Positions 44,046 through 64,000 are shown, counted from the stretch's first letter. The stretch: 64,000 nucleotides of DNA from Dehalococcoidia bacterium (GCA_965248595.1 CBDFJM010000003.1:10729-74728), one strand, 5' to 3'. Numbers and translations: made by a program. Notes: generated by a model from the letters alone, not told the origin.

Positions 44046-44434
44046 CCCACTCCGGGTTACTCATGCGCTGAGCCTGCCAGGCTATCGCGTTCGTTTGATG
44101 GCATTAATCAGCTAGCCCTCAGCTTGGGATTTGATTTATTTTTTGGGAGAAACAAATCCGAGTTTCGTAGCGGGAGAAGGCTGGCGTGGATTGCGCGGCC
44201 TGGAGTTGCGGGATATGGCAATGCGAGGGCCATGACAGGGTGATAGGCGCAAGCGAAGGGCATGGGATAGGGGGATGTGGCAGGGTGGCGTCAAGGCTAT
44301 GTGTCGGGACCCGGGCCGTGCGGCCAGTTCGCCACGACACGGTTGGCAGATGCCGAGTAGTGCTACAATGGGGTTCACTGGTGACTGGGACGGCTATGTT
44401 TTTATCAACGGTTGACATAGGAAACGCCAGCTAA

Positions 44435-45668: not shown

Positions 45669-45736
45669 ACAGGGGGATAAGTGGAATCGCTGCCTGATTG
45701 AGGGCATGATAGTGCTCTCGGAGACAGGAGCGAGAG

Positions 45737-46866: not shown

Positions 46867-47492
46867 CGCACGGCAGCGCGATTCCACTTATCAAACCGGG
46901 CAGCGCTGTTCAGACAAACGAGACCACCTCTTTGGTCTCCTACAGTCGGGGCAAAACCTGCTGTTACATGCTGCGTTTCTACGGCTCCATTCCGAACGAT
47001 GTCTTGCCTCCCATATATACGAATCATACACCCACTAGCTATTCCTCACTACGAGGCCAAGGCTAGGTTACTAGCCACCAACACGACTCCCCTAACGGAA
47101 CAGCTTGCCCATACTCGTGGAAAGGCCCCGCGCTAGCATAGGCCACCCTGGCCAAGTCAAGAACAGATCGTAGCTGAGGTCGTTCAAAACCGCGACTCAA
47201 TGGACTTGGTCCCTTGACCAGAACACTGTCAGCCTCTGAGGGTCTGATAGAAAACTTGAGCCGGTCGTAGCTGCCTCCTAAGTCTGTTGGACGCTAGCTA
47301 AACCGGCTTCGGATATAGATTCGAGATGCGGGTGTCAAAAACTTATGGATGGTGGGCCTACGTGTACTGAACTGCGAACTTTTCGATTGGCCGTAAAGCT
47401 GTGAGGCTCGACCAAAACCGTTGCAGCTCCCCGAAAGCCTCAACGAAGAACAACGCTGACATTACAGGTGGTCTCCCTCAGAATGCGAAGCA

Positions 47493-48245: not shown

Positions 48246-49675
48246 GATGCCACCCCCATTAAGTCGAGAATCGAATACTTTCTCTAAATAGGACGCTCTT
48301 GCCGGAGGAATAGTTCCCGGGGAGTATAATTCTGCCCCTTCTTTCTCCAAGCAAATTCTGTATCAGCGGCTACGTTGGTCCACGGCTCTCAGTCGCTCAG
48401 CACTCTCATCAGCTGGACTCCCGTTCTAATTAGGTATACGCTTCAACTGTCAATTCCGTTCCATGAACTAGCGTCTCCTAAGCGAACTAGTGCCCATCTA
48501 CTCCCAGATGCCGTCAGGGCTCACCTAATATAGGCAATGACCCCCGTTAATAAAGAAGAAGCCCCACGCATACGGCGCAGGGCAGGAGTCTAGTCTTCAA
48601 ACGGTGGCTGGCCCGGCTCATGCCAGATCGTTCACGATGCGGTCTCTGAATTGCTCACCTCATCCCAACGAGCCAGAAACTTCTACCTCTAAGCAAACCT
48701 CCATCTCAATCGGAGAAGCCCCTCCGTTACTCAACCTCAAACTCGTCTATTCATCACAAACGTACACATAGGTCGTAAAACCGCCGAATTGAGACGCCTC
48801 TGTATCGTCGGGATATTCATTCTCTGCCCAAACACCATAGAGGAAATTGCCGCAGCCTTCATCGCTGACGTCCTCGCTGTATGACGGGTGTTTTCTAAAG
48901 AAGCTATTTCAAGGTTAGCGAACCATTATATCATGTGTCTCAAAAAACTTGTGTCGGAGATTATATGTTCATGGATTCGTTTGTCTCAACTGGTGGCATG
49001 GACTAGCCAGGCGGCCTAGTGAGTAGTCACCTGTGCCCGATACGCTCAGCGGTGGGAATCTTCGTGTGGGCCAGCTTCTGAGCATTACAAGTAGCTTCTT
49101 GTCCTTTGGGGAAGGCTACGCCGCCGCATGGTGAACGCATAGTATGGATAGTCATTTATCGACGCGACGTGCAGCTATAGTCACGTCCTCGCCCAGCGGG
49201 GGTTCTCCTCAATGCGTCACGACGCGAGCAGCAGGGGGCGAAACTCGTCTCTGGCCTGCTCGCAGACTTTTTGGGCCTCATCACTCATTACCTCCGATGA
49301 GACGAGGCACATGAGTCGCCATACCCTTTGGGTCTCAGGTTCTGAGACCTTCCAACTGTGTTCACTTCCCCCTGACCTGTTGCAGGGTCCAGAATCCGTT
49401 GTCAAATATGATACAAATGTATCATGCGGTCGGCTCACAACAGTGATATCTTTAGAGTTGCCAACGTTTAAGGGGAGATGGCGACGAAGCCCATTGGTCA
49501 GTAGTGGGTCGCCAACGATGCGCGTCAGAGATATGGCGACGAATTAGAAACACTCCCATTCAATTAGGACAAGACGACTTCAATGCCGATGGATGCAAAT
49601 TTCTGAACCTGATGATTCCTAATCATTTCGCCAACGGAGGTACTTGAGCAATGGCTTCTCTTTTTTGCCCGGCCA

Positions 49676-50245
49676 ATGATATTTTTCCAGGTCCTACTCC
49701 TGTTAGGCAGTGCGGTAATTCTACTGCTGACAGTGCCCAAAGCGATGGCTCACAATTATTCTCCCAGTTTCATTTGGGATACTGACGACACGATTACCGT
49801 CGAGAGCCGAATTCCTCAAAGTACGGATGTTCACTCCGCCGCTGATGACTACGACAACAATACTGACCTTAACGTTAATCGATGCACACCGAATGGAAAC
49901 TGCGGCAATGTGATTCACTACGACGGGAACTACGGGTCGTCGGAGCCTCCCGCCTGGGCAGATCCGCTGTCACAAATGGAGCCATGCTCTGATGACGACC
50001 ACGTGCTGAATGGCTACTGCAATGAGACCAACCATAAAGTCGATTTCTCATACATTTACTACAATACCCACTCGTACGCTACAAACCTTGTCGCTTACTA
50101 CGCCCGGCACGAAATGGGCCATGTGTGGGGTCTGGACCACGTCGCATGTTCCACCGCTTCCGTGATGTGGATAAACGCCTGCTCGGGTTCGGTCTGGGGA
50201 GTGCTAACCAGTCACGACAGGTCGGACGTGAACAGCAAGTATTAA
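49676..50245 (+). CDS. Small secreted metzincin-type zinc metalloprotease (snapalysin-like size)
   Basis: 189 aa. Signal peptide ...VPKAMA|HN, HEMGHVWGLDH (HExxHxxGxxH) and a possible Met-turn SVMW. Confidence 0.75.
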   Translation: MIFFQVLLLLGSAVILLLTVPKAMAHNYSPSFIWDTDDTITVESRIPQSTDVHSAADDYDNNTDLNVNRCTPNGNCGNVIHYDGNYGSSEPPAWADPLSQMEPCSDDDHVLNGYCNETNHKVDFSYIYYNTHSYATNLVAYYARHEMGHVWGLDHVACSTASVMWINACSGSVWGVLTSHDRSDVNSKY

Positions 50246-50300
50246 CCCAGGTTTGTTCGGGTTGCCCGAGGCACAAAATCCCTCATTTAAGGAGACTCTC

Positions 50301-50984
50301 GTGGAAGCATCATCCGGAAGACTCAAAACGCCAGCCCGATTCCTACTCCCGCTCGTCACAGTGGTGATGGTCGTCCTCGCTCTATATTTCTTGATCGTCT
50401 CTGCCCAGAATGCTGCGAACCCACTCGTTGGAGCTAGCCTCGCCGTTTGGGCACCGGAGCCGGGCAGCATACAGACGCTGGTCAATCGGTCCGACGCCAT
50501 CGTCATCGGTCGCATCGACAGCATTCTTGCCGAGCGTATCGAGGGACCATACGGCGCTTCAGAAAACACTGATCAGCGGGATGTGCCCCAACCTGCTGAA
50601 TATCCCTACACGTACTACAGCATCGCCCCTGATGTGGTAGTCTTGGACGATGGTCTGGTTCGTGACAACCTCGTGATCAAGCTCAAGGGGTTCAAGAGCA
50701 AGCGCGGGTCATCACCACTGCGGATATCGCTGCCCGACGTCGGGGACGAGTTCGTGTTCTTCCTCAGCCGAAACCCCGACGACAAGAGCTACAGCTTCCT
50801 GGGCCCGTGGGCGCTGGTTGACGTTTCAGGGCCTACAGTCGTCCAATACGGCGGCGCCCGTCCGGAACCTACCTTCGCACCTGACGCCAATCCCGCTAGC
50901 TTCGCAGCGATGGTGGCCCTTGCTACACACGACAGGGTGCCAGCCTCTCCGCTTGGCGACACCAATTTGTTGGTAGACGAATAG
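50301..50984 (+). CDS. Hypothetical membrane-anchored/secreted protein
   Basis: ORF 50253..50984. GTG 50301 has an AAGGAG 7 nt upstream. Single N-terminal TM helix. No known motif. Confidence 0.5.
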   Translation: MEASSGRLKTPARFLLPLVTVVMVVLALYFLIVSAQNAANPLVGASLAVWAPEPGSIQTLVNRSDAIVIGRIDSILAERIEGPYGASENTDQRDVPQPAEYPYTYYSIAPDVVVLDDGLVRDNLVIKLKGFKSKRGSSPLRISLPDVGDEFVFFLSRNPDDKSYSFLGPWALVDVSGPTVVQYGGARPEPTFAPDANPASFAAMVALATHDRVPASPLGDTNLLVDE

Positions 50985-51235
50985 AGGAGGTGCTGTAGCC
51001 GATCCCCCGGCTCACACCTTGATGCATATGATTTGATACGGGCTGGCGTAGCCCGGGGGGTCGCCGCTCTCCTGATCCAAAGCGGCTCCCATGGTCGTCG
51101 AGTAGAGATGCGTTGGCAGCTCCCCTGCACGCTCTGAGATAGGCCCAAGACCGCTGATACCGCACAGTCTTTTTGACAAGCTCCCATGGCTTGCTACAGT
51201 GAGGATGCGACTACGCGTTTCCTATGACTACGGCT

Positions 51236-51585
51236 GTAGCTCCAGGTCATCGTGGACAACGGCCCCGAATTCGCCGGAAGGGTCTTGGATGCATGGGCCC
51301 TACCGGAGCGGTGCGACTGCACTTCATCGACCCCGGCAAGCCCATCCAGAACGCATTCATCGAGAGCTTCAACGGACAGCTCCGCGACGAGTGTCTCAAC
51401 GAGCACTGGTTCATGAGCTTGCCCGCTGCCCAGCGCATCGTGGCGACCTGGCGAGACGACTACAATGCCATCCGGCCCCACAGCGCCCTGGGCAACCGGA
51501 CACCAGAGGAGTTCGCACAACAGATGGTCAGGAAAACGCCGGTCGGACTCTAAGGATCCCTAGACCTAATCCGGGGAGCAGGTCA
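51236..51585 (+). pseudogene. Remnant of an IS3-family (IS2/IS407-like) transposase OrfB C-terminus with right inverted repeat
   Basis: VIVDNGPEFAG... in one frame and RLHFIDPGKPIQNAFIESFNGQLRDECLNEHWF...RPHSALG in another. The element end ...GGGGAGCAGGTCA lies at 51585. Confidence 0.8.
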
Positions 51586-52414
51586 ATACCACCGAATGGT
51601 CCACTCCGTGAGCCGGGCTACTGAGACTTTGAATGTGATCTCAGTTTACTAGGTTCGAGAGCGCAACTTCACGCCAGGATGTAGGGTATAACCCAAAGAA
51701 GCCAGCCGACATGAACTTCTGAGTCGTCTCAGTATCGGCCATGCTATTCGATTCCATGGATGGTCTTGAAGACGCCAATGGCAGTTAGCAGCTGCTCCCG
51801 GGTGAGATCGTGACCATAAGCGATGAGGCTAGGTCCGTCGAACCTGGGGAAGCTGATGCCGGCGAACCCTCCGGAGACGTCCGTGGAGACAAGTAGCTTG
51901 GCATTGACTCCTCCGACCTCATGGTAGAGGACAGTGTAGTCGCTCTCCCTGTTTGAGTGGGGGTCGGACTAGGAGGCAGCTGACTAATATCTTTCCTGTA
52001 GTAGTCCTGCTATAATAGGTTCCTAGCGACAGGAAAAACTTACTCAGGCTCTTCGAAGCAGTTGGCTGTGGCGCTAACCGGTGCCACCATGGCCAGCTGC
52101 GATTTGGTTACCTTTGACAGATTTCTGTGATAGGGACACTTGGGTATTTGCAGGAAGGCCCTCTCGGGGGCCGATAGGCCGGAGCTGAGCGTAGGCCGGA
52201 GCTGAGCGAAGGGAGCACCGCAACATGACGTTTCATGCGGTGGGTTACGCCAACAAGAAAGGGCCGTGTGATATATCTGCCGCCGCCTTGCTCTGCTTGA
52301 AGGGCAGCGGCCGTCGTCATGCCTCTCTGTACTTCAGGAACCGGGCCACGAGATCGGCGCTTACAGCATTCGGGTGCGGCCATTCCATATGCGGTGGGCT
52401 GGAGTTTCTCGTTG

Positions 52415-53083
52415 ATGACCATTGGCATCCTTGACCTGTTGAACCAAGCGCCATACGGTGCCTATGCCGTGGACATGAGCCAGACCATCTTGTTCTGGAA
52501 CCCCAGCGCCGAGCGGATTCTCGGCTTCAAAGCGGACCAGGTGATTGGGCGTCGTTGCTACGAGGTCTTACGAAACCTGCCCGAGGAGGGTTCGACCCCT
52601 ATATGCATCGAGAGCTGCCCCTCCATCCGGCTCGCCAGGGAAGGGCGCATCCCGCCGGTAGTCCACGTTCGGATGCTCTGCGCCTCAGGTCGCCGAATGC
52701 GAGCTACTATCACCCCAATAACGATTCCGGCCACCCGATCCAATGATTCGATACTGGTACACCTGTTCCACGTCGAGGCAGATGACGAACGGGCTAGAAG
52801 GGTCGCCAGTTCCGTCCAGAATGTGCTGCTGAAAGGGAGTACGTCGGCACCATCAGCGGACCCGATCACACAAGCGGCACTCAGACGGGTCAGTCCCCTG
52901 ACGGCCCGTGAGGTGGAAGTGTTGCATCTTCTGGCCCTGGGACTTGAGACCAAGGAGATCGCTGCTGAGCTGCACGTTAGCAGCAACACTGTTCGCAACC
53001 ACTTCAGCAATGCCCGGGGGAAGGTGCAGGCGAAGACGAAGCTGGGCGCGGTGCTCGCCGCCCAGCGTCTCGGTCTGATCTAG
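52415..53083 (+). CDS. PAS-domain LuxR-family transcriptional regulator
   Basis: Start moved to ATG 52415. PAS-like LNQAPYGAYAVDMSQTILFWNPSAERILGF. C-terminal LTAREVEVLHLLALGLETKEIAAELHVSSNTVRNH. Confidence 0.85.
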   Translation: MTIGILDLLNQAPYGAYAVDMSQTILFWNPSAERILGFKADQVIGRRCYEVLRNLPEEGSTPICIESCPSIRLAREGRIPPVVHVRMLCASGRRMRATITPITIPATRSNDSILVHLFHVEADDERARRVASSVQNVLLKGSTSAPSADPITQAALRRVSPLTAREVEVLHLLALGLETKEIAAELHVSSNTVRNHFSNARGKVQAKTKLGAVLAAQRLGLI

Positions 53084-53197
53084 CGCCTTTCGCCTCCGCC
53101 TGTGTCGACTCCACCTCATCCGGGCTGAATACCGGAATCTCTTGAAGGAAGATAGTGCAAATGCATCAGTTAAGAACCGTCTCCGGTATAAGAAATA

Positions 53198-53350
53198 TTT
53201 GACTCTGGCTCAGGATTGGGCCGGGTACTCAGGACCCTACCACAGTCACTTCCTTGAGTGAAAGCGAGGACAATGTTTTGACTCTGGCTTCGGATTGGGC
53301 CGAGTACTCAGGACCCTATCACAATCACTTCCTTGAGTGAAAGCGAGGAC
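53198..53350. repeat. Tandem duplication of a 74-bp unit (period 79 bp) in the 5' region of the downstream gene
   Basis: TTTGACTCTGGCT(C/T)(A/C)GGATTGGGCCG(G/A)GTACTCAGGACCCTA(C/T)CACA(G/A)TCACTTCCTTGAGTGAAAGCGAGGAC at 53198-53271 and 53277-53350. Confidence 0.9.
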
Positions 53351-53356
53351 GAAGTA

Positions 53357-54019
53357 ATGACTAAATGGACGATAAAGAGCAAGCCAACCTTCTTGGTGTT
53401 GGGAGCAGCGCTTACAGCACTGTTCGTAGTTTCTTTGCTTGTATACACGGACCAAGCTGGGGTTCAGGCCAGTTCAGGTAATCTGCTTCCAAGCATGACG
53501 ATGGTGTACGAAGTGTACGGCCCCTCCATTTCCGTCGGGGAGCGCTCTATCGAGCCCTTTAAGGAGTTGCATCGCCTCGAATACCAGTCGGAGACTGAAT
53601 GGGTCGACACCGTGATCGAGTCTCCGTCGGTCGACCTTGGCCGGTATGGCGTCGGGAGTAACGTCGGCTCGTACACGAGGTTGGATGGCAGAGCTATCGA
53701 CGAGTACGATGCAATGGATGGCAGCATGGAGGAGAGCGCCGTCTCCGAGGACAGCATCTTCGTGCCGAACTCGGCTTTCGCTTACGCTTTGGCAACGCCT
53801 AACTCCATGGACGACACCCCGGGGCTCTCGAAATCCCAAGTAGTCAGCAGTGCGACAGTGTGCTTCAACGGCGATTGCGAAGAGAATGCGCGTGGGGTTC
53901 TGTATAGCGGCGACGGGTTCGAGCTAGTAATGTTGATGAACGACTCTTGGGGCATCCCCCTTAGATTGGGGGACGGATTCCTGGTCAGGGAAATCGAGAT
54001 TCAGGTCGTAAAGCAATAG
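53357..54019 (+). CDS. Hypothetical membrane-anchored/secreted protein
   Basis: ATG 53357 preceded by GAGGAC. N-terminal TM segment PTFLVLGAALTALFVVSLLVY. No known motif. Confidence 0.5.
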   Translation: MTKWTIKSKPTFLVLGAALTALFVVSLLVYTDQAGVQASSGNLLPSMTMVYEVYGPSISVGERSIEPFKELHRLEYQSETEWVDTVIESPSVDLGRYGVGSNVGSYTRLDGRAIDEYDAMDGSMEESAVSEDSIFVPNSAFAYALATPNSMDDTPGLSKSQVVSSATVCFNGDCEENARGVLYSGDGFELVMLMNDSWGIPLRLGDGFLVREIEIQVVKQ

Positions 54020-54021
54020 CC

Positions 54022-55164
54022 CTACCGCCCGGCCCTGGGCATGGACTCTGGACGCTGCTTCCAATGCTTCTCGAAGAGGGTGCCGTAGGCTCCCCGCTGG
54101 GTGTAGCCGATGGCATCGGGCTCGGAGTCCATCCCGCACAGCATCACCTGCTCCTCGTAGGGAGGCAGCCCCGATGCCACGTCGGAGAGTCTGAGGAACA
54201 CGCTATTGCCTATGAGGTGAAACAGGGCGGCTGGGGCGAGCCCCGGCCGTTCCCGCACCACCTTGCGGTATCTCCGCCTACGGCTGAACCGTCCGTCCTC
54301 CACCGAGTCGTCGTCGTCCTTGCCGATGGTGTGCTCCTCGAAGCCGTAGCGGGATATCCACCTTCCCTCCTCGGAGCGCCCGAACTCCGTCCTGATGGCC
54401 GGGCTGAACCGGTAGAGCAGGTGGAACAAGGTGCTCGAATACCCTCCAGAGAGGGTGCCGGTCAGGGTGAGGGAGCGCCCGCAGGAGTCGGCGAGGACGC
54501 CCGCTGCGATGCCCTGGGCGGAGCCCCTTCCTTTGTACTCATGCACCTCGTCTGTTACGAGCAGCTCGAAGAAGCCCTTCATCCGCTTCTTGATGTAGTC
54601 GGCGAGCGGGTATCGCTTCGGCCCGTTGGGGTCGGCTTGCCAGAGGGCGGAGCCGCACCCAGCGCAGGTGCGCCGCTTGCGCCCCATCTCCTCGGCGGTC
54701 AGGGGCACACCGTCCTTGTCCACGATCTGGCTGGCCCGTTCTCTTGACATGATGGCGAAGAGGGGTCCTGGGCCGGTGGAGAGGCGCAGCTTCTCCAGGT
54801 CGGTGATGGAGGCGACGATGGCGACGCGGGCCTTGGGCACCGTCTGCTCGACCTCCCGCTTCCACTTCCGGGTCAGGTGCGGGGGTGTGAGGACGAGCAC
54901 CCGCTGGAAGCCAGCGGCGTAGGCTGCCGATGCGCCGAGGAAGGTCTTGCCGGTGCCCATCTCCCCCACGATGTTTGTGCCCTGGTGGGCCTTGAGGGAG
55001 AGGGTCACACCCCGTATGGCGTCGGCCTGCGCCCCCAGGGGGGAGCGTAGGAGTTGGGGCAGGCCGACGCCGTTCTGAGAGGGCCGGTAGAGGGGCGGGT
55101 AGGACTCCACCACCCGCTGAGCTATTGCGTCTCGGTAGGTGTCGATGAACTGAGCGAGGTCCAT
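54022..55164 (-). CDS. SNF2/DEAD-like helicase, N-terminal ATPase lobe only (3'-truncated)
   Basis: 380 aa. Walker A GEMGTGKT, motif II LLVTDEVHEY and LTGTLSGG. No helicase C-terminal lobe. The ORF stops exactly at the junction with AT-richer DNA. Confidence 0.75.
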   Translation of the reverse strand: MDLAQFIDTYRDAIAQRVVESYPPLYRPSQNGVGLPQLLRSPLGAQADAIRGVTLSLKAHQGTNIVGEMGTGKTFLGASAAYAAGFQRVLVLTPPHLTRKWKREVEQTVPKARVAIVASITDLEKLRLSTGPGPLFAIMSRERASQIVDKDGVPLTAEEMGRKRRTCAGCGSALWQADPNGPKRYPLADYIKKRMKGFFELLVTDEVHEYKGRGSAQGIAAGVLADSCGRSLTLTGTLSGGYSSTLFHLLYRFSPAIRTEFGRSEEGRWISRYGFEEHTIGKDDDDSVEDGRFSRRRRYRKVVRERPGLAPAALFHLIGNSVFLRLSDVASGLPPYEEQVMLCGMDSEPDAIGYTQRGAYGTLFEKHWKQRPESMPRAGR

Positions 55165-55287
55165 TGGTCGTCTCCTTCCTTATATATAGATATGTATGCC
55201 GGGTTCTTGTGGGTTGTAGCAAGAGGCGAGGCCCCGCTGGTCACTGACACCAGTGGGGCCTCGTGATGCGGCTCTGGGTGAGCAGTC

Positions 55288-56325
55288 TTATGCGGCGATG
55301 TCGGTTATCATGCCGTCCTCCAGGTCCAACGCGACGACAGTGGTGCGGAGCTTCTCCCGGTAGGTCTCCTTATCGGGGGTCTCCTCCACCAGGACCAGCT
55401 CCTTGGTGGTCTTCCCCTTGACCAGGATGCGCCGACCGTCGGCCTGGAGCTGGAGGTTGTCCAGGAAACCGGCAGCGATGAGCATGGCCATGTGTCCGCG
55501 ACGGAGCGGCATCAGTGGACGGGTGCGTTGGTCTTTGCTGGGCCACAGCGCGTCGGTGACCTCGGCGTTGGCCCACAGGCCGGAACGCCTCGCCTCGGCA
55601 GCAGCGGCCACGGGATCGACGTTGCGGGTGGCGAACAGGATGTCGCCTGCATCGGCGGTGGATGGGGTGTAGACGGGGTAGTTCGAGGAGACCAGCGGTC
55701 TTGGCTCCCCCTCCGACCACTCCCGTATCTCCCTCTCGACCTCCACGTCCAGATGGGGCTCCAGTTGCCGGTAGCCCATGACCACCACCTGGTCGAATGC
55801 CTCACGCTCAGGGTGCGGGAAAGCCCAGCACCTCAGCCTGGCGTAGTATGACGCCAGGTACTTGGCGGAGACGGCGAGACGCTGCCGGGGCACGATGAAC
55901 ACCAGCAGCCCTCCCTGGTCCAGGTAGCGGGTGACGTGGGTGAGAAACGCGTGCTCCGTCCGCTTACTTTCCGGATCGTGGTCGTATGGAGGGTTCAAAA
56001 AGCAGACGCCGAACGCCTGGTTGCCGATGGAGGTCTGGAACAGGTCCGCCGCCAGGGTGCGGCGCAAACGGCCCGCCGCCTCTTCCGCTCTCTCCTGGTG
56101 CAGCTCCACCCCGTAGGTCTCGATGGGGACCGTGTTGACGCTGGCCAACCGCTCCGCCAGTTGGGCCGCCGCTTCCCCCGCACCGCAGCAGGGGTCGAGG
56201 ATGCGGAGCGCCTCCCGGTTCCGGTAGTAGGAGCCCGAAGGAACCCGTATCAGCGAGGCGATGAAGTCAACCACCCGTTCTGGCGTGGGGTAAAAGCCCC
56301 CTTTACTCTGTGCTGCTAGTCTCAT
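55288..56325 (-). CDS. N6-adenine-type DNA methyltransferase (resembles mobile-element DUF6094-type methylases, from memory)
   Basis: 345 aa. FYPTPERVV, motif I ILDPCCGAGEAA and motif IV CFLNPPYD. Confidence 0.75.
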   Translation of the reverse strand: MRLAAQSKGGFYPTPERVVDFIASLIRVPSGSYYRNREALRILDPCCGAGEAAAQLAERLASVNTVPIETYGVELHQERAEEAAGRLRRTLAADLFQTSIGNQAFGVCFLNPPYDHDPESKRTEHAFLTHVTRYLDQGGLLVFIVPRQRLAVSAKYLASYYARLRCWAFPHPEREAFDQVVVMGYRQLEPHLDVEVEREIREWSEGEPRPLVSSNYPVYTPSTADAGDILFATRNVDPVAAAAEARRSGLWANAEVTDALWPSKDQRTRPLMPLRRGHMAMLIAAGFLDNLQLQADGRRILVKGKTTKELVLVEETPDKETYREKLRTTVVALDLEDGMITDIAA

Positions 56326-56585
56326 GACGTCTCTCCTTTCTCATGGTCGGTCGATATTGATGGGCCGAACTTGCAGGGTTCGGGGTTGCAGAAGTAGCAG
56401 TCCCTCCTCGCCCTGGGCGGTGGGACGTAGTCCTCGGCGGACAGCGCCTGGAATATCACCTGCACCCCGCAGGAGTTGCAGTGGTAGCTCTCTCCGGTAT
56501 GGACATCCTTGTCCGGCTCCTCAATCTGGGCGGACCGCTCCTCGCAGTGCGGGCAGGTGAAGAACAGGGTCTGGTTTGTGGTCAT
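56322..56585 (-). CDS. Zinc-ribbon protein (87 aa, three CxxC pairs)
   Basis: ATG 56585 with AAGGAG 8 nt upstream, inside the listed 186-aa ORF. CPHC...CNSC...CYFC. ATGA overlap with the methyltransferase. Confidence 0.6.
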   Translation of the reverse strand: MTTNQTLFFTCPHCEERSAQIEEPDKDVHTGESYHCNSCGVQVIFQALSAEDYVPPPRARRDCYFCNPEPCKFGPSISTDHEKGETS

Positions 56586-56614
56586 AGTGTTTCTCCTTTC
56601 ATCGGCTACCGCCT

Positions 56615-57013
56615 TCAGGCGGCGAGCCGCTTTTCTGACTTGATTCCCACCACCTCTCCGATAGCGCGGGTCCGCTGGTAGCAGAGGACCTGGCGGGTGC
56701 CGGCAGCTTCTGCGCAGGCGGTACAAAAGGCTGTGATAATCTCGGCGTGTTTCGCCACCGGCATCCGTCTGACCAGCACGTAGCCCCCATCGACTAGCGG
56801 GTGGCGGTAGAGGGTTACCCTGGGGTCGCGCCTCTCTGCCTCCGTCGCTGGCCGATAGAAATGCGGTTGCGCGGAGGTGCACAGGTGCTGCGTGTGGTCG
56901 TGCCGGCAGAAACGGCAGGTCGTTCCGTCCGGCGAGAAGCGCTGCCAGGCTTTGAAATGCCGCTCCTGCCTGCGTTTGTTTGTGCGTTTGGCAATTGTCA
57001 GCGTCTTATCCAT
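56615..57013 (-). CDS. Hypothetical Cys/His-rich protein (132 aa)
   Basis: GGAGGAGGG SD. CRFC and CTAC pairs. No family recognised. Confidence 0.55.
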   Translation of the reverse strand: MDKTLTIAKRTNKRRQERHFKAWQRFSPDGTTCRFCRHDHTQHLCTSAQPHFYRPATEAERRDPRVTLYRHPLVDGGYVLVRRMPVAKHAEIITAFCTACAEAAGTRQVLCYQRTRAIGEVVGIKSEKRLAA

Positions 57014-57665
57014 ACCCTCCTCCGTTCACTGCTGCCACGATGGACTCTTCCTCTCCGGGTAGGGTCAGCGTCCCAGAAGCCACCGCCTCCGAGAGGTCCT
57101 CCTTGAGGGATTCGGGGTTGGGGTTGCAGCGGTAGGCGACCACTCCCGTCGATTGGAGCTGAGTGGTCTCCTCCTTCTGAAGGCCCCGCCGCCACAGCCA
57201 GTCTGCCCAGGAGGGATGCAACGGCAGTGGGCTCCTCTTGTCCAGGAAGCGGTAGTGGAGCCTGGGGGCCTCGTCTTCCGTCTGGGCCAGGAGGAGGAAG
57301 GTGTCGTGTTCGGAGGCGTACTGGGCCATTTTCGTATAGACCAACGCGTGCCAGCCCCCACTCACCGGCAGCTTGGCGATCTTGGTCGTCCACGTGCCAA
57401 TTGTTTGGTACGGGATACCGCAGCGCTCATACCCTCCCGAGAGGGCCATCCCATCCGCGCCCTGGATGAGGTGGGCAACATCGGGCGGTTGCTTGAGCAG
57501 GGAGGCCCAGATCGCCTTGAGCGCCGTCTGGGAGCCCACCATCGAGACGAACCAGAGGCCGTCGGTCGCCTCGTCGCGGGCGAAGGCGTCGGCGGTGGCC
57601 GAGAACCCCCCGGCGTTGATGGTGTACAGGGCTTCGGGGTCGAGTGTGTGGTCGGTTGCAAGCAT
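57006..57665 (-). CDS. Hypothetical protein (219 aa)
   Basis: AAAGGAG SD. Overlaps the downstream gene by 8 nt. No family recognised. Confidence 0.55.
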   Translation of the reverse strand: MLATDHTLDPEALYTINAGGFSATADAFARDEATDGLWFVSMVGSQTALKAIWASLLKQPPDVAHLIQGADGMALSGGYERCGIPYQTIGTWTTKIAKLPVSGGWHALVYTKMAQYASEHDTFLLLAQTEDEAPRLHYRFLDKRSPLPLHPSWADWLWRRGLQKEETTQLQSTGVVAYRCNPNPESLKEDLSEAVASGTLTLPGEEESIVAAVNGGGYG

Positions 57666-57769
57666 GGGTATGTCTCCTTTCGGTAATTGGAATGCTGATG
57701 CGCGGAGGCGCGGTGACTCCGTGGGGCCGGTAAGGGTCGTTGCTGGGCTGCCTGGGTTTTCCTATAGGG

Positions 57770-58273
57770 TTAGAGGGTGGTGATGAGGCCGCGCTCCTTG
57801 AGGCTGACGGCCTTGTCCCCGCCGATGACCACGTGGTCCAGTAGCTCGACCCCCAGGAGCTTGCCCGCCTCCATGAGCTTCTTGGTAATAGCCACGTCAG
57901 CCGGGCTCGGTTCGGGGTCTCTGCTGGGATGATTGTGGACGACGATGATGCTTGGAACCGCCTCAATGACGGCGGGCCGGAACACCTCCGCCGGTCTGAC
58001 GGTGATGGAGCTCACGTCGCCCTGGTAGACGACCCGCTGGCCCACCACTTCGGTCCTGGTATTGAGGAGCAGGACCCGTAGCTGCTCCTGGGCGAGGCGG
58101 GCCATCTCCGGCGCTAGCAGCAGCCGCACCGCCTCGGGCGAATAGACCGCCGGAGGGTCGGCGGGGCGCGGTGGATGGGTCTCCACCCCGTAGCGCACGG
58201 CCAGCTCTCCCAGGATGCTGACGTTGCGCCGGAGGGTCTCCAGTAGTGTGTCGGTGTAGCGTTCCGTGGTCAT
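57770..58273 (-). CDS. radC: RadC-like JAB domain protein
   Basis: Start moved to ATG 58273 (GGGAGG SD). ...IIVVHNHPSRDPEPSPADVAITKKL...GVELLDHVVIG. Confidence 0.88.
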   Translation of the reverse strand: MTTERYTDTLLETLRRNVSILGELAVRYGVETHPPRPADPPAVYSPEAVRLLLAPEMARLAQEQLRVLLLNTRTEVVGQRVVYQGDVSSITVRPAEVFRPAVIEAVPSIIVVHNHPSRDPEPSPADVAITKKLMEAGKLLGVELLDHVVIGGDKAVSLKERGLITTL

Positions 58274-58387
58274 AGGGACCTCCCGTAGGTGTAAGTGGAC
58301 TGAAACGAGAAGCGGGGCCGATCCCAAAGGTGGGAACGGCCCCGTGGAGCGCCTGCGAAACGGCGGACGGCAGTAGGTGTTTCTGGC

Positions 58388-58783
58388 CTAGAAGGGTGAC
58401 TTGGCCGTCACCGGTTCCTCAGCAGCCGCGTCCTCAGACTCCTTCGCAGAGCCATTCCCGTTGCGAGAGTCGAGGAAGACCACCTCGGAGGCGTGAATCT
58501 CGGTGCGGTGCCTGCGCTGTCCGTCCTCGGTTTCATACGAGTTCTGGGCCAGCTTGCCTGCGACGTACAGCCGGTCCCCTTTGGCGACATACTGGTTCAC
58601 CGCTTCGGCCAGGCCGGACCAGCAGGTGATACTGTGCCAGTCCGTGCTCGTCTCTCCGTTCTGGCGGTGTCGGTCGGTGGCCAGCCGTAGCTGGGTGATG
58701 GCGGTGCCGCTCTGGGTGTATTTCATTTCGGGGTCTGCTCCGACCCGTCCCAGTAGCTCTACCTTGTTGATTGTGCGTGCCAT
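58388..58783 (-). CDS. ssb: Single-stranded DNA-binding protein
   Basis: 131 aa. MARTINKVELLGRVGADPEMKYT OB-fold and an acidic tail ending ...SPF. Confidence 0.92.
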   Translation of the reverse strand: MARTINKVELLGRVGADPEMKYTQSGTAITQLRLATDRHRQNGETSTDWHSITCWSGLAEAVNQYVAKGDRLYVAGKLAQNSYETEDGQRRHRTEIHASEVVFLDSRNGNGSAKESEDAAAEEPVTAKSPF

Positions 58784-58897
58784 GTCGTTTCTCCTTTGTG
58801 TGTGTAGTAGTGCGGCGTTGCCGCACTCGAATGGAAATGCAGCGCCGTCCCCTTCCGAAGGGAACGGTCTTGTCCATGCGCTCCCGTTACAGAGCGT

Positions 58898-59956
58898 CTA
58901 GCTCACCCGCACGTACTGAGACACGGCCTCCGTCACAATGTCGACGCGGGTATCCGGGTCCAGCAGCGCGTTCAGCTTGCGGTAGTCGACCGAGAAGCGG
59001 CGGGTCTGCACCAGGCTTACCGACCGGCCCTCGACGCTTGCTTTGGTCATCCCCCGCTGCCGCATCCACGACTTGAGGGTGTCCAGCGCCCGGCGTTTGG
59101 CCTGTTCCGGCTCCCGAAGGGCTTCCTGCGCTTCCAGGTATGCCCGCGCCGCCTCCCGGGCCTCCTCCGCGCTCACCTCCCTTCCTTCTATGTCCGGTGA
59201 CTCGTCTGTTTCTCCTCTTTCCTCGGCTGCTCCGGGCTTGCACGTGTTCAGGAACGGGCAGCTCCGGCACTGCCAGCTACCGGCGCGGAAGTCCCGCTCC
59301 GGCAGCTCGTCCGGGTCCTGTCCGTGGGCGGCGTAGTGGTCGGCCAGCTCGCCGAGCCGGAATGTAACGGCCTCCATCGCGTCCTCCACGCGTTCGGCGG
59401 GAATCGTCTCCGTGTCCCAGGCTCGGCTGCCCGTGTCCATCGTGGCGATCACCACATCGCGCTTCTCCCCGAATAGCCCGTAGGTGTAGAGAGCGGCCTG
59501 GGCGACCGATTCGGGGTGACTCCGCTCTGCGCCAAGGGTCTGCCAGCGCTTGTAGGCTTCCGGCCCCCTGGTCTTGACCTCGACGATCACCTCCGGCCCT
59601 CCGAAGAAGGGGAGGATGCCGGTGGCGTCGGGGTGGCCGGTAACGCGGAGGTTGGGGGTGATCTGGGCCGTCACCTCCCTGGGGTTGTTGGGGTCCACCG
59701 GGGTCACGTCCCAGCTCGCACGCTCCATCGCCCGCAGCACCACCTGCTCAAGGGCCTGCCCCGCCTCCATGACGGTCAGGGATTCGTCGCTGGGAGGGTT
59801 GGTGGGCTGATGTTCAGTGGCGGCATACCAAAGGGCTCTGCGGCAGCTGCTGGCGGCCGATGCCCGCACCACCAGCGCCCCGTCGCCGTCGAAATGGGCT
59901 GCCGGTCGTGAGTAGACCTCCGACCGGTCGTTGGTCAGGTCCTCGTTCTGGCTCAT
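58898..59956 (-). CDS. PD-(D/E)XK nuclease, Cas4/RecB-like with C-terminal Cys cluster
   Basis: Start moved to ATG 59956 (AAAGGAG SD). GHPD...IVEVKTR nuclease core, with SSCRR... and CRSCPFLNTC cysteines. Confidence 0.7.
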   Translation of the reverse strand: MSQNEDLTNDRSEVYSRPAAHFDGDGALVVRASAASSCRRALWYAATEHQPTNPPSDESLTVMEAGQALEQVVLRAMERASWDVTPVDPNNPREVTAQITPNLRVTGHPDATGILPFFGGPEVIVEVKTRGPEAYKRWQTLGAERSHPESVAQAALYTYGLFGEKRDVVIATMDTGSRAWDTETIPAERVEDAMEAVTFRLGELADHYAAHGQDPDELPERDFRAGSWQCRSCPFLNTCKPGAAEERGETDESPDIEGREVSAEEAREAARAYLEAQEALREPEQAKRRALDTLKSWMRQRGMTKASVEGRSVSLVQTRRFSVDYRKLNALLDPDTRVDIVTEAVSQYVRVS

Positions 59957-60048
59957 GGTCACTTCTCCTTTGCTCCTGAATATGAAGAGCGGAGCCGCCC
60001 CCGTAGAGACAGCCCCGCCTTTGCGCAACGCTCGGTTGTCTGTGCAGC

Positions 60049-60468
60049 TCATGCGGCTGCCTTAGCTTCGGTTCCTTCTTCCTCTCCTCTCTGCTTCTCC
60101 TCTCTCTCCTGCCTGGCCTTGAGGAAGCCCCGCAGGATGTGGGCGATAGCGTCTCCTAAACCGAGCACCCATATGCTCGACCCATCGCTCAACTGATTGG
60201 CGAAGGGCTGCATCTCAGCTATGCCCTGGCACTGGTCCACGATCTCGGCGACGGGCGTGCCCCTCCGCAAGTGCAGCGAGACGAGTCGGCAGGCCAACTC
60301 CGTCACCCCGGAGGTGAAGGAACCCGCCTTGCCGATGCTTCCGAAGACCTCGAAGGGCTCACCGTCCTCGTCCAGGGACACCGTGATGTAGAGGTTCCCG
60401 TGCTCGGTATGGAGCTTGGTCGTGCTGCTTGGCAGCGTCCTGGGCCTGGGCCGTGTCGCCGGGGTCAT
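60049..60468 (-). CDS. TSCPD-like domain protein (RNR class II C-terminal-like), conserved cysteines replaced
   Basis: 139 aa. GNLYITVSLDEDGEPFEVFGSIGKAGS...LVSLHLRRG resembles the TSCPD domain. ...GLGDAIAHIL stands where TSCPDAIA is expected. Confidence 0.55.
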   Translation of the reverse strand: MTPATRPRPRTLPSSTTKLHTEHGNLYITVSLDEDGEPFEVFGSIGKAGSFTSGVTELACRLVSLHLRRGTPVAEIVDQCQGIAEMQPFANQLSDGSSIWVLGLGDAIAHILRGFLKARQEREEKQRGEEEGTEAKAAA

Positions 60469-60785
60469 GGTCCCTCCCCCTTCTCAAGGAGATAGGGAAG
60501 GGCTGGGGCGTAGCGGTCGAAGAATTTGGCGACCTTGAGGGCACACTCCCGGTCCCTCTTGTCGCCGATGCCCAGCAGCGTCTGGACGATGACCTCTTCG
60601 CAGTCCTCTTCGGCGTAGGTCGGGGTCAGCAGCGTCTCTTGGACGGCAGGGGGAAGGGAGTCCCACCGCTCCCAGCTCAGCTTCAGCCCGCCGTGGCTGG
60701 CCGTTTCGATCCGCACCACGCCCTCGGCCAGTGCTACGACGTCCTGGGGAGGTCCCCACGGGGTATACATAGTGTTCACTTTCAT
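60465..60785 (-). CDS. Hypothetical mobile-element protein (TPWG...SHGG motif; DUF7007-like, from memory)
   Basis: 106 aa. MYTPWGPPQDV...IETASHGGLKL. GAAAGGAG SD. Confidence 0.5.
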   Translation of the reverse strand: MKVNTMYTPWGPPQDVVALAEGVVRIETASHGGLKLSWERWDSLPPAVQETLLTPTYAEEDCEEVIVQTLLGIGDKRDRECALKVAKFFDRYAPALPYLLEKGEGP

Positions 60786-60808
60786 GTCGTCTCCTTTCGG
60801 TCCTGTAG

Positions 60809-60846
60809 ATGAAAACGGGGCTGCCCCGGTGTGCAGACAGCCCCGT
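60809..60846 (-). terminator. Stem-loop with short T-run after the Rad52-like gene
   Basis: Minus strand AACGGGGCTG-N14-CAGCCCCGTT followed by TTC. Lies between the stop at 60875 and the next start at 60785. Confidence 0.4.
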
Positions 60847-60874
60847 TACGTGGGCTCGCTATGGCGCGTTGGGC

Positions 60875-61627
60875 TCATGCCGCTTCCGCCGCCTCTGCTT
60901 CCCGCGTCTGCTGGAGCTTCCGGGTCGCCCCTTGCACGAGCGGCGTCAGCTCCGATGCCGATACCGCCTCAAGGTCCTTGCCCGTCTTGCCCTTGACCGC
61001 AGCCCGCACCTGCTTCTCGTCGAACCCCTGCATCGCCCCCAGGTCGATCAGCGTCGCCCGCAGCGGCGGAGCAAGGGAGTCGGCTGCGCTTTCCTGCTTC
61101 GCCGGTTGCCCGGTGGCCGCCTGGTCTCCGTAGAGGCAATTCCCGAACTGGTCTCCGAAGCTGCGCAGGGCGCGTTTGAGACCGTCGGTAACCGACCCTT
61201 TGCAGGCTGTGTCGTGACCCTCCGCCGTCTCCTCCGCCACGGCGTGGAACCCGATATCCGTGCGGGGCGGAGCGCCGGGGACGGTGACCCGCACCGGAGC
61301 GCTGTAGGCGCGGATGCGGCTGATCTCGCCCGTCTTGGGGTCGACCTGCTCGATCTCCCGCAGGGTCACGTCGCCCACCACTTCATAACCCCAACCCGCT
61401 AACCCGAAGATGCGGTTCGCCTGGTCGATGACGGTGTGGCCCTCGATGTAGTTGTAATTGCGCCCGGCCCGTCCCTTGCGCTGGGAGACCAGGCTCGGGT
61501 CGAGGGGCTTCTCCAGCTCGCTCACCACCTTGGGGGACAGGCTGTCCCAGAGCAGGTCGTGCTCCGGAGTGATGGCAGCGTCCGGGTGGACGCCGTTGCT
61601 TCCGTTCTTGGTCGATGAGGTCGTCAT
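60875..61627 (-). CDS. Rad52/Rad22-family single-strand annealing protein
   Basis: 250 aa. ...LVSQRKGRAGRNYNYIEGHTVIDQANRIFGLAGWGYEV... Confidence 0.8.
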   Translation of the reverse strand: MTTSSTKNGSNGVHPDAAITPEHDLLWDSLSPKVVSELEKPLDPSLVSQRKGRAGRNYNYIEGHTVIDQANRIFGLAGWGYEVVGDVTLREIEQVDPKTGEISRIRAYSAPVRVTVPGAPPRTDIGFHAVAEETAEGHDTACKGSVTDGLKRALRSFGDQFGNCLYGDQAATGQPAKQESAADSLAPPLRATLIDLGAMQGFDEKQVRAAVKGKTGKDLEAVSASELTPLVQGATRKLQQTREAEAAEAA

Positions 61628-61846
61628 TGTGCTTCTCCTTTGTGATGTCTCTGCTGTTTCTCTGGTCGGTGCAGGTTGCCCCTATGGGGAGCCCGTAGGC
61701 GGGGCAAGCCCCGTCATTCATTGGGCATAGCGCCTCCTTGGGTAATGCTGTAGGGGGGTCGATGGCGCAGGCACGGAGCCTGCAAGACGGCGGGCGGCGT
61801 GGGCACAAGAGCGGGCGGGAGGCCCGTGTCGAAGGGGAACTGTGTG

Positions 61847-62905
61847 CTACCTAACGGTGCGGGATGCCCGTGCAAGCAAGCCCCGGAACGTGGTCTGTCC
61901 GTGGGGCGTCGTGGCGAGCTCGGCCACGTCAGCGGCCACCCCAAACAAGCGCACCGTGGCGGCGCGCCGTCCAAGCAAGCTTTCAAGCCGCTCGGCGGCC
62001 TCGCGGCCCGCATCGTCTGAGTCGAAGGCGAGGAACACGCGAGGGAAGGCAAGCAAGCTACCTGCCACCCGCTCCATGCCCTGTGTCCCCAGGGCTGCGC
62101 AGGCGGGGAGGCCCCACTGCTCAAGGGCAAGCCAGTCGAACACCCCTTCAGTAAGGACCACCCAAGACGGCGCAAGGCCAAGCCGCCCAAGTCCAAGCAC
62201 CGGCTTGGGTCCGGGCAGCGCCTGAAACCTCGGCGTCCGCTCCGGGTCAATGGCCCGGCCCACAAGCCAGCGGGCGCGGCCCGAGGCCAGGTCGGGAACC
62301 ACCACCATCCCTGCGAACCGCTCGCCCCGCTCGGTGAACAGGCCCGACGCCCGTATCCGCTCGCCGCCGAATCCGGCGGCGCCAAGGTACTGGCGCAGCC
62401 CGTCCCCCGGCGCGTAGCCAAGACCCAGGCGGCAGGCGGTGTCGAAGCTGATGCCCCTGGAGCCCAGATACTCACGCGCCTCACTGCTGCGCAGCATGGA
62501 CCGGAGGTAGAACCTCGTTGCCGCCGACAGCGCCGCCGGGTCCCGCTGGGGAACCACGGGAGCAGCGGTACGCCGTGGCGCGGCCTGTGTCCTCGACCGG
62601 ACGGCTGGGCTGGGAGCCAGCCCAGTCCCACCACCCAGCCTCTGTATCGCCTCGGGCAGGGTGAGGCCCTCGGCCCGCTGGATAAAGTCCAGCACGTCCC
62701 CACCAACTCCACAGCCGAAGCAGTAAAACCTGGACGTGTCGGCGTACACCGTAAAGCTGCCTTCCGACTCCTGGTGGAAGGGGCAGACGCCCTGACGGAC
62801 GCGGCCCCTTCCCCTCAGCTGCACGCCCGCAGCCTCCACCACGTCGGCCAGGGAATGGCGGCTCTTGAGCGCCTCCAGGTCAACCTGTGTGTTGGCTACG
62901 ACCAT
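61847..62905 (-). CDS. DnaG-like primase (CHC2 zinc finger + TOPRIM)
   Basis: Start moved to ATG 62905 (AAAGGAGG SD). CPFHQESEGSFTVY...FYCFGCGVGGDVLDFI and TOPRIM LTEGVFD...FDSDDAG. Confidence 0.85.
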   Translation of the reverse strand: MVVANTQVDLEALKSRHSLADVVEAAGVQLRGRGRVRQGVCPFHQESEGSFTVYADTSRFYCFGCGVGGDVLDFIQRAEGLTLPEAIQRLGGGTGLAPSPAVRSRTQAAPRRTAAPVVPQRDPAALSAATRFYLRSMLRSSEAREYLGSRGISFDTACRLGLGYAPGDGLRQYLGAAGFGGERIRASGLFTERGERFAGMVVVPDLASGRARWLVGRAIDPERTPRFQALPGPKPVLGLGRLGLAPSWVVLTEGVFDWLALEQWGLPACAALGTQGMERVAGSLLAFPRVFLAFDSDDAGREAAERLESLLGRRAATVRLFGVAADVAELATTPHGQTTFRGLLARASRTVR

Positions 62906-63363
62906 GACCCACCTCCTTTCAGGGGCTTCAGGCCCCGCAGGCTCCTCGCGGAGACCACCTTGCCCGGCTGCCACCCCATCCCCAGCACAGCCAGGACTTT
63001 CACGGTCCCGTCGCCGTGGGGAGCGAGCGCCGCAGCTCTGCCAGCGCCCTGGCTGTAGACCAGGGTCTCGCTTTGCCCGAACCGTCGTCGCACCAGGTCC
63101 TGCCACTCGGCGAAGGCCCAACGCGCCTCGCGCACATCCGCCGTGGCGGTGTCCAGGTCGGCTATGAGCGTCAACGCACCGTCGAGGTTCCCCGCCTTCC
63201 GCAGCCGCCGTGCGTCGTGGACCCTCCGGGCCACGGTCTCCTGGGGCTGCTCGCGGTTGCTGGCAAAGAGGGCATCCATCACCCGGTCCACCAGCTCCTC
63301 CAGACTGCGCCTGGGCCTTTCACCCACCACCATCGTTCTGTTGTTCATCACTGCCGTTGTCAT
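62896..63363 (-). CDS. Hypothetical protein (155 aa)
   Basis: Start moved to ATG 63363 (AAAGGAGG SD). Overlaps the primase start by 10 nt. No motif recognised. Confidence 0.5.
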   Translation of the reverse strand: MTTAVMNNRTMVVGERPRRSLEELVDRVMDALFASNREQPQETVARRVHDARRLRKAGNLDGALTLIADLDTATADVREARWAFAEWQDLVRRRFGQSETLVYSQGAGRAAALAPHGDGTVKVLAVLGMGWQPGKVVSARSLRGLKPLKGGGSWS

Positions 63364-63632
63364 CACGACCTCCTTTCTACTTTCGATTGCCGTAGTGCTT
63401 GTATCGCCTGTTTCCTGTTCCTTGCGCCCATGAACCGCCGGAGCATCAACGCTCCGCATCCAAGGGCCAGAGCGTTGACGGTGAAGGCGTCAACGCCTGA
63501 ACCGGTCAACAGGGGCATTACCAGGAGCAACGCCACGCCTGCCGCCAGCGTCCTCCGTTTGTGCCGCCGCATGGCTCTTGCGGTCCCGGCGACGGCGGCC
63601 AGGACCCGTGGGGACTGTTCCTTGCTGTGCAT
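63363..63632 (-). CDS. Small membrane protein (89 aa)
   Basis: ATG 63632 with TAAGGAGG SD. Central hydrophobic stretch TLAAGVALLLVMPLL. Appears to be the first gene of the packed minus-strand block. Confidence 0.45.
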   Translation of the reverse strand: MHSKEQSPRVLAAVAGTARAMRRHKRRTLAAGVALLLVMPLLTGSGVDAFTVNALALGCGALMLRRFMGARNRKQAIQALRQSKVERRS

Positions 63633-64000
63633 TCGCACCTCCTTATTTGTGTTGCCCGCACCGGCATCCGTGGCGCGGGTCTTCGCTACTGGGTTGACTG
63701 TCGATGGACACGCTCCGCCCACGGTGGGATGCCTCACGTGAACGCAGCGTGACTTGTCCCCGGCCTGGTCCGCGCATCGAACGCAGAGGGGCCAGGGTGG
63801 AAAAGACGCAGCTCGGCCAGGGTCTCTTCGTCGCAACGCGAGTTCAGGGGAGCTACGAAGACGCGGCGCGGCTGCCCTACGACGTGGTCACAGAACAGAC
63901 GCGGGTGTAAAAGGGCACAGCTCGACCAGGGTCAATATGGCGTACCGATTCTGGGGAAGCTGCGGTGACGCGAAGCGGCCAGCCTGCGATGCAAATGGCA

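Follow-up and report, generated by a model that had tools for sequence, protein, structure and literature searches.

The DNA analysed here is a 64,000-nucleotide (nt) stretch of one strand from a Dehalococcoidia bacterium (GCA_965248595.1, CBDFJM010000003.1:10729-74728), and this whole stretch is referred to as the window. From position 54022 to position 64000 it carries 14 consecutive open reading frames (ORFs) on the minus strand, with no internal stops in any of them, behind a non-coding leader that runs off the window edge. With good probability, this block is the DNA-processing operon of an integrative and conjugative element (ICE) family of the Dehalococcoidia (Chloroflexota), present in the window as a copy cut at position 54066. 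In the direction of transcription, the features are:

63633..64000, minus strand: operon leader, non-coding, running off the window edge, with two copies of GACCCTGGYCGAGCTGYG
63363..63632, minus strand: gene 1, protein of 89 amino acids (aa) with one hydrophobic segment (ORF and relatives)
62896..63366, minus strand: gene 2, 155-aa protein, overlapping gene 1 by 4 nt
61847..62905, minus strand: gene 3, DnaG-type primase, 352 aa (Pfam), overlapping gene 2 by 10 nt
60875..61627, minus strand: gene 4, Rad52/Rad22-family single-strand annealing protein, 250 aa (Pfam)
60465..60785, minus strand: gene 5, DUF7007 protein, 106 aa (Pfam DUF7007, 4.5e-16)
60049..60468, minus strand: gene 6, TSCPD-domain protein, 139 aa (Pfam TSCPD, 8.9e-15), overlapping gene 5 by 4 nt
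58898..59956, minus strand: gene 7, Cas4-like PD-(D/E)xK exonuclease, 352 aa (PHROG and motif)
58388..58783, minus strand: gene 8, single-strand DNA-binding protein SSB, 131 aa (Pfam SSB, 1.7e-31)
57770..58273, minus strand: gene 9, RadC-like JAB-domain protein, 167 aa (Pfam RadC, 2.4e-36)
57006..57665, minus strand: gene 10, 219-aa protein (conserved ORF)
56615..57013, minus strand: gene 11, 132-aa protein with invariant C33, C36, H38, H43, C97, C100 and C111, overlapping gene 10 by 8 nt
56322..56585, minus strand: gene 12, 87-aa zinc-ribbon-like protein with CxxC...CxxC, its stop overlapping the methyltransferase start by 4 nt
55288..56325, minus strand: gene 13, DUF6094-family N6-adenine-type DNA methyltransferase, 345 aa (Pfam and PADLOC)
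54022..55164, minus strand: gene 14, fragment of an SNF2-like superfamily 2 (SF2) helicase (Pfam ResIII, 2.7e-7, and BLASTP)
54060..54070, no strand: element breakpoint, where nucleotide homology to every related copy ends at about 54066

An earlier note on this DNA, made by a model from the sequence alone, had described fourteen minus-strand genes here with uniformly strong GGAGG/AAGGAG Shine-Dalgarno sequences. The ORFs do read through at that place, and a sequence of the AAGGAG/GGAGG type lies 5-10 nt ahead of every one of them. The tight packing with 4-10 nt overlaps that it also described holds for five of the 13 junctions (4, 10, 4, 8 and 4 nt) but not for the remaining eight, which are gaps of 29-219 nt. 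Most of the intergenic gaps contain a GC-rich hairpin, and these hairpins occupy the same places in relatives although their sequence differs. There is a strong hairpin in each of the longer gaps (60786-60874, 59957-60048, 58784-58897, 58274-58387 and 55165-55287), with three between the Cas4-like gene and ssb, and most are followed by a weak T-run. For the hairpins in the gap between these two genes, double changes occur in 4 of 21 pairs with a covariation term of -0.2; this is weak covariation, and a structured RNA is not claimed there. Terminator-like sites were not above shuffled expectation under a strict U-tract rule, and a sigma-70 promoter scan gave no match. Guanine plus cytosine (G+C) content at the third codon position is 0.76-0.87 in the block; for host genes at 1-44 kb most values fall in the range 0.66-0.80.

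Pfam bears out the family calls made earlier for the primase, the Rad52-like protein, the TSCPD protein, SSB, RadC and the N6-methyltransferase, and a protein previously known just by its TPWG/SHGG motifs proves to be the DUF7007 protein, which is found in 62 related loci. Gene 3 matches CHC2 Zn_ribbon_DnaG (1.9e-21, 76.2 bits) and Toprim_2 (9e-10, 39.2 bits), both above their cutoffs, with DNAG_N (1.5e-4) falling under its own; the start that gives 352 aa agrees with the gene calls in two related loci (L001 and L002). Gene 4 matches Rad52_Rad22 at 1.8e-28 (99.8 bits against a cutoff of 20.3) over residues 35-172, the N-terminal DNA-binding domain of Rad52. The TSCPD motif position in gene 6 reads LGLGD, without the name-giving cysteine, and the protein also has a ribonucleotide-reductase-like PHROG match (5.7e-5). 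RadC retains the HNHPS motif, and its start at MTTERY agrees with 167-aa calls in relatives. The methyltransferase matches Pfam DUF6094 (1.5e-24), MTS (7e-8) and N6_Mtase (7e-6), as well as PADLOC mad2 (2.7e-16) and type II methyltransferase models; it has no partner restriction enzyme.

The Cas4-like nuclease had also been named in the earlier note. This assignment stands although the window protein has no Pfam match and no PDB sequence match, as PHROG families identify it as a Cas4-domain exonuclease (2e-16) and a RecE-like exonuclease (1.4e-12). D110, E126 and K128, which form a D...ExK motif, are invariant in 22 sequences together with C38, C230, C233 and C239. The cysteines are spaced C-x191-C-x2-C-x5-C, with one N-terminal and three C-terminal. 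The protein thus has the Cas4-type motif set (D...E-x-K plus 1+3 Cys) of exonucleases with a predicted iron-sulfur cluster. It carries in addition, at its C-terminus, a conserved domain of some 100 aa, and has more than 1500 homologs at 60% identity or above.

The last gene of the block, previously called an SNF2 ATPase, belongs to the right family but is not a complete gene. By BLASTP it corresponds to residues 1-406 of a 762-aa homolog in L002, the N-terminal half of the protein, with an in-frame deletion of 40 residues. Walker A and the DEVH box are the only helicase motifs retained, the C-terminal lobe is gone entirely, and the last 14 codons are unrelated sequence running to the stop. The intact homolog has a C lobe resembling CHD1L/INO80/SWR1 (E 1.6e-8). 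The window gene is thus, as read from the alignment, a fragment with one of two predicted RecA-like lobes and, since the SNF2-type C-terminal lobe is missing, it cannot be a working helicase. Below the breakpoint at 54066 the G+C content drops from about 0.65 to about 0.57. This truncation had gone unnoticed; by sequence comparison the module is incomplete at its 3' end. With the operon cut inside the helicase gene, the window copy is a remnant in partial decay that retains its first 13 genes intact. The ubiquitin-like cassette that follows in intact copies, described below, and the far end of the element are absent from it.

At the other end the module continues. As had been proposed, it extends beyond the window: related copies match it up to base 64000, and further element genes follow in the relatives. 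The window SSB recurs unchanged on four other contigs, all from one metagenome, and the whole block is present there at 88-93% nucleotide identity with different flanks; taken over five contigs, again with differing flanks, related copies show 90-97% nucleotide identity. A scan of representative genomes, one per species, found 450 loci, nearly all of them in Dehalococcoidia or Chloroflexota metagenome-assembled genomes, including SAR202 and Tepidiformaceae. The related copies are located in chromosomes of 2-4 Mb, and several genomes have more than one (six in isolate bd3fcf20, three in OZ253575.1). Copies within one genome are 61-91% identical, which points to separate acquisitions and not to recent duplications. 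The comparison of related genomes for presence or absence, recommended in the earlier note, therefore gave multiple copies with different flanks at different loci. SSB, primase, RadC and recombination proteins also occur as host genes, and the block could in principle be a set of ordinary chromosomal replication and repair genes. This is scarcely credible given the divergent copies at different loci of the same genome, the third-position G+C above that of host genes, the abrupt breakpoint and the linkage to secretion genes described next. Group II introns, with RVT_1/Intron_maturas2 ORFs of some 600 aa and as many as four in a single copy, have invaded many related copies along with IS110, for instance those in L001, L002, L008, L011, L012, L013 and L017; the window module has none inside.

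The type of the element was read from its relatives, by gene-family clustering of 80 genomic loci with about 20 kb around each. Upstream of the module there is a further gene on the same strand, F7 (~280-320 aa). Beyond F7 the opposite strand encodes a secreted 205-aa protein, a TrbL/VirB6 protein, a type IV secretion system (T4SS) pilin and a ~570-aa protein whose N-terminus is weakly PrgI-like, in 50-62 of the 80 loci; F10, TrbL (TrbL_3) and T4SS_pilin stand divergently upstream at a fixed distance in 60-62. The rest of the T4SS operon was read at two loci centred on the 570-aa gene (L088 and L089). Both continue with a second pilin, a VirB4-like ATPase (743-744 aa), a coupling protein (863-878 aa; TrwB_AAD_bind, 30.9 bits against a cutoff of 20.5) and a Replic_Relax protein (PF13814; 28.3 bits against a cutoff of 25.3), in that order. 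A large serine recombinase ends the arm in L088, though not in L089, and one also adjoins the element in L003/L005. The nearest plasmid relatives of the VirB4 protein are from Streptomyces and Embleya (34% identity) and of the CD1110/TrsE type in Firmicutes (22-28%). Together, T4SS, VirB4, coupling protein, Replic_Relax protein and serine recombinase make up the gene set of an ICE.

The earlier note was right to see a mobile-element replication-recombination module, which multiple copies at variable loci and the T4SS linkage both support. The element types that it offered (prophage early region, satellite or integrative plasmid) do not fit relatives that carry a T4SS and for which the viral and plasmid collections searched gave no match. 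The first of these deserves attention, as Rad52-type annealase and exonuclease pairs are classic phage recombination modules. If the block were the early region of a prophage or phage satellite, its annealase, exonuclease, SSB, primase and methyltransferase would serve phage replication and recombination; the gene set does resemble phage early regions, and three of its products, namely the Cas4-like exonuclease, the helicase and the methyltransferase, have PHROG matches. Yet the Cas4-like protein has no relative in 2.9 million IMG/VR contigs or 50,697 phage records (INPHARED). Neither Pfam searches of the larger window ORFs nor the gene calls at the 80 related loci found virion structural or packaging genes, and T4SS genes are found at those loci instead. 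We regard a phage origin as very improbable. A tblastn search with the Rad52 and Cas4-like proteins gave no match in 72,556 plasmid records (PLSDB), which together with the viral searches argues against a prophage, a satellite or a plasmid. Exact-protein look-ups of the window Rad52, primase and helicase fragment also returned no match. In the window itself, tblastn found no T4SS, ubiquitin-like-system or serine-recombinase gene, and the only recombinase-type genes present are insertion sequence (IS) transposases (IS3 and IS256-type).

Several points weigh against assigning the block to a conjugative family. The window stops at 64000, before any T4SS arm of its own copy would begin, and the T4SS, VirB4 and coupling-protein genes are those of relatives, some of which (L002, L003/L005 and L007) have lost or replaced that arm. 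Neither oriT (the origin of transfer) nor attachment sites nor element ends were identified, and excision and transfer are predicted for its members. The relaxase is a putative one, assigned by a Pfam Replic_Relax family match, the roles of the operon proteins are drawn from family membership (with five of the 14 lacking an assignable function), and any leading-region status is putative as well. We nevertheless infer that a T4SS arm lies beyond base 64000 in the window genome.

A reading that we hold to be possible, though clearly the less likely one, is that the window carries an isolated remnant produced by decay or recombination, or else an integrative or mobilizable element that is not conjugative. 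It would lack a T4SS of its own and would no longer move, and its genes would have been kept by chance or co-opted by the host. The 3' end is certainly truncated, the adjacent 10 kb consist of IS3, a methyltransferase fragment and low-GC filler, and several relatives are without the T4SS arm or are full of group II introns and IS110. Against this, 13 genes in a row are undamaged and retain ribosome-binding sites, the leader, conserved motifs included, extends as far as the window edge, and the T4SS arm is kept in 60-62 of the 80 relatives. Such a reading also concerns the state of the window copy alone, and is compatible with membership of an ICE family.

Intact copies of the element continue beyond the 762-aa helicase with Prok_Ub, a 76-aa protein, a protein of about 270 aa, Prok-E2_D, Prok-JAB, a ThiF-type E1 and DUF2958. 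After DUF2958 comes variable cargo that includes an ImmA-like regulator, radical SAM proteins, methyltransferases, a dCTP-deaminase-like gene and type I restriction-modification genes. The cargo differs between copies: in L092 (11288-19222) and L096 (13220-16342) it features the R subunit of a type I restriction enzyme, a dCTP-deaminase-like gene and an HTH_3 plus Peptidase_M78 (ImmA-like) gene. Could the block then be a defence island, with the methyltransferase, the SNF2-like helicase and the ubiquitin-like E1/E2/JAB cassette acting against phage and the rest being accessory DNA repair? The mad2 match of the methyltransferase is in keeping with this, as are weak matches of the helicase C lobe to DpdE/ZorD models, a match of the E1 to E1-E2 models (both in PADLOC) and the restriction-modification and dCTP-deaminase-like genes past the cassette. 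However, these matches are to generic domains and not to complete systems, the methyltransferase has no cognate nuclease, the nine upstream genes match no defence model, the cassette is absent from the window, and the whole operon travels with a T4SS. A defence island is consequently an unlikely explanation, and the block is better placed in an ICE family.

The leader contains the 18-nt motif GACCCTGGYCGAGCTGYG at 63807-63824 and 63916-63933, 109 nt apart, with a degenerate third copy. About 55 of 82 related loci have this motif in the corresponding position and on the operon strand, against some 13 off-target matches in about 3.6 Mb, and even lineages whose proteins are only about 60% identical have kept it. 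An operator, a promoter element and oriT are its conceivable functions, and on its conservation and position we treat it as a candidate for these roles. Close relatives have 2-3 copies 105-109 nt apart; in L001, L002 and L006-L088 the motif is found about 4-5 kb upstream of the Cas4-like gene. The partner arm upstream, CGCAGCTT, forms an inverted repeat with GACCCTGGYCGAGCTGYG.

Five of the fourteen products had been listed as being without an assignable function, and searches of Pfam, PHROGs and PADLOC leave the same number unassigned. These five proteins, like RadC, DUF7007 and TSCPD, are all conserved core genes of the arm. No match in the three databases was obtained for the 89-, 155-, 219- and 132-aa proteins, and all matches of the 87-aa protein (gene 12) were sub-threshold. 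Gene 1 matches a 90-aa gene called in L001/L002 and is found by tblastn in 18 loci. The profile and structure-prediction searches that had been suggested for these ORFs were carried out, gave nothing significant, and support no conclusion. For gene 2, PDB profile matches to ketosteroid-isomerase/NTF2-like chains are weak and not significant (E ~0.2), and the single-sequence AlphaFold model has a predicted local distance difference test (pLDDT) score of 59. Gene 10 is strongly conserved (at least 66% identity over 73 loci) and has no PDB match; its AlphaFold model, built on a 38-sequence alignment, has a pLDDT of 58, and a Foldseek search with it yielded no match at E <0.5. Gene 11 probably binds metal, judging from its invariant cysteines and histidines; it has no significant family or PDB match, its lone PDB profile match being to WD40 at chance level. 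Apparent fusions of the 219-aa and 132-aa proteins (P0253, P0258, P0286, P0296 and P0311) are frameshifted or read-through calls across the 8-nt overlap; a functional linkage based on them is rejected because the fusions are gene-call artefacts.

Outside the block, positions 1-44 kb of the window are ordinary host chromosome, with hemA/hemC, gatB, the nuo operon, proB/proA, lon, holB and thiL-like and cysK-like genes. An IS256-type transposase (12306-13517; Transposase_mut, 4e-134) interrupts it, with a SAM hydroxide adenosyltransferase gene on one side and the nuo operon on the other, and DNA about 85-87% identical to this element is present in two other Dehalococcoidia loci (L022 and L035). 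Positions 7357-9054 encode a secreted protein of 565 aa that begins with a signal peptide, contains beta-helix-like repeats rich in Gly and Asn, and is anchored in the membrane at its C-terminus; it has no Pfam match and an atypical codon-position G+C. No transfer RNA was found in the window, and no Rfam match at 43-64 kb. From 44000 to 54066, between the host genes and the truncated element, the G+C content is low (0.52-0.58) and the stretch looks like a patch of decayed mobile DNA. It contains several ORFs without a family and the following features:

44435-45091: C-terminal fragment of an N6/N4 DNA methylase
45737-46866: IS3-family element
52319-53083: PAS-LuxR regulator

About 1.4 kb of this stretch (47493-48885) is 77-85% identical to L017 19025-20947, which lies beside a truncated copy of the element in another genome. 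The shared DNA includes a Thr/Pro-rich lipoprotein-like ORF on the minus strand (47493-48362).

What might the operon do? Most likely it would serve the replication and establishment of transferred DNA. The element would excise and/or enter a recipient as single-stranded DNA, and the operon would then supply the necessary functions. The primase and SSB would prime and protect the single strand, either for synthesis of the complementary strand or for replication of an excised circle. The Rad52-type annealase and the Cas4-like protein, as a 5'-3' exonuclease, could form a two-component recombinase that repairs or recircularizes the DNA, and the orphan N6 methyltransferase and the SNF2-like helicase may protect the element from restriction. 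A more far-reaching proposal, which we put forward as speculation and think rather doubtful, is that the operon is an early-expressed establishment and anti-defence programme of an undescribed, phylum-restricted and very abundant family of Dehalococcoidia ICEs. Primase, SSB, the Rad52/Cas4-type recombinase and the orphan methyltransferase with its SNF2 helicase would all belong to this programme, joined in intact copies by a complete ubiquitin-like conjugation cascade; the cascade would act on the recipient instead of in host defence, and GACCCTGGYCGAGCTGYG would be a control site or oriT.

Dehalococcoidia and other Chloroflexota are abundant and mostly uncultured, and little is known of how they exchange DNA. 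A conserved conjugative element at hundreds of loci would be a major route of gene flow among them. To our knowledge no genetic tools exist for these bacteria, and the element, with its primase-based replication module, recombinase pair and serine integrase, would be a natural starting point for vectors. In annotation, the label ICE arm suits this recurrent phage-like block. No new mechanism emerges from the window, which shows an ordinary, partly decayed mobile-element module.

We know of no counterpart of the same composition to this DNA-processing operon of 14 or more genes, and a literature search, of incomplete coverage, found no paper on a Dehalococcoidia or Chloroflexota ICE or on the same gene combination. 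Parts of it do resemble known systems. SSB, orphan DNA methyltransferases and DarB-type genes are over-represented in the leading regions of conjugative plasmids, which enter the recipient early (Samuel et al., 2024; PMC11541004). Like them, the operon has packed genes on one strand, SSB, an orphan methyltransferase, DarB-type methyltransferase/helicase functions and many unknowns. It differs in having a full annealase/exonuclease pair and a primase, and in that no ArdA, PsiB, anti-CRISPR or toxin-antitoxin was seen, and the leading-region label is an analogy only. The pairing of an annealase with a PD-(D/E)xK exonuclease, in one operon with SSB, is shared with phage recombinases (lambda Red Exo/Beta, RecET, and Rad52-like Sak with a Cas4-type exonuclease). 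In the Dehalococcoidia operon, by contrast, the DUF7007 and TSCPD genes stand between the pair, the exonuclease has Cas4-type cysteines and an extra C-terminal domain, and the context is conjugative. The Prok_Ub, Prok-E2_D, Prok-JAB and ThiF E1 genes after the helicase in intact relatives are comparable to prokaryotic E1/E2/JAB/Ubl and antiviral Bil-type systems, from which the window copy differs in being without the cassette; E1/E2/JAB/Ubl (ubiquitin-like) clusters have been noted on ICE-like elements (Iyer, Burroughs & Aravind, 2006; PMC1779556).

The conjugative arm has its closest counterparts in Actinomycetota and in monoderm Firmicutes. Plasmid NZ_CP108778.1 of Embleya sp. NBC_00896 encodes the VirB4 that comes closest to that of the family in the plasmid database, at only 34% identity, and has the same order of PrgI-family protein, VirB4-like ATPase, coupling protein and Replic_Relax protein. 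The Embleya cluster differs in lying on a linear plasmid with no VirB2-like pilin genes annotated, and the 30 kb read there are without the primase-Rad52-DUF7007-TSCPD-Cas4-SSB-RadC operon. Firmicutes ICEs and plasmids of the mating pair formation type MPF-FATA (ICEBs1, Tn916, ICESt3 and pCF10) likewise have a CD1110/TrsE-type VirB4, a PrgI-like VirB3, TrbL/VirB6 and a coupling protein, as well as integration by a site-specific recombinase and an ImmA-like regulator (HTH_3 plus Peptidase_M78), of the kind seen in the cargo of one relative. The Dehalococcoidia elements are set apart by VirB2-like pilin genes (PF18895), a large serine recombinase, very low identity and a Replic_Relax protein where the Firmicutes ICEs have a MOBT/MOBP relaxase. 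By this comparison we class the element as a monoderm-type ICE, whose DNA-processing arm is present in the window in truncated form.

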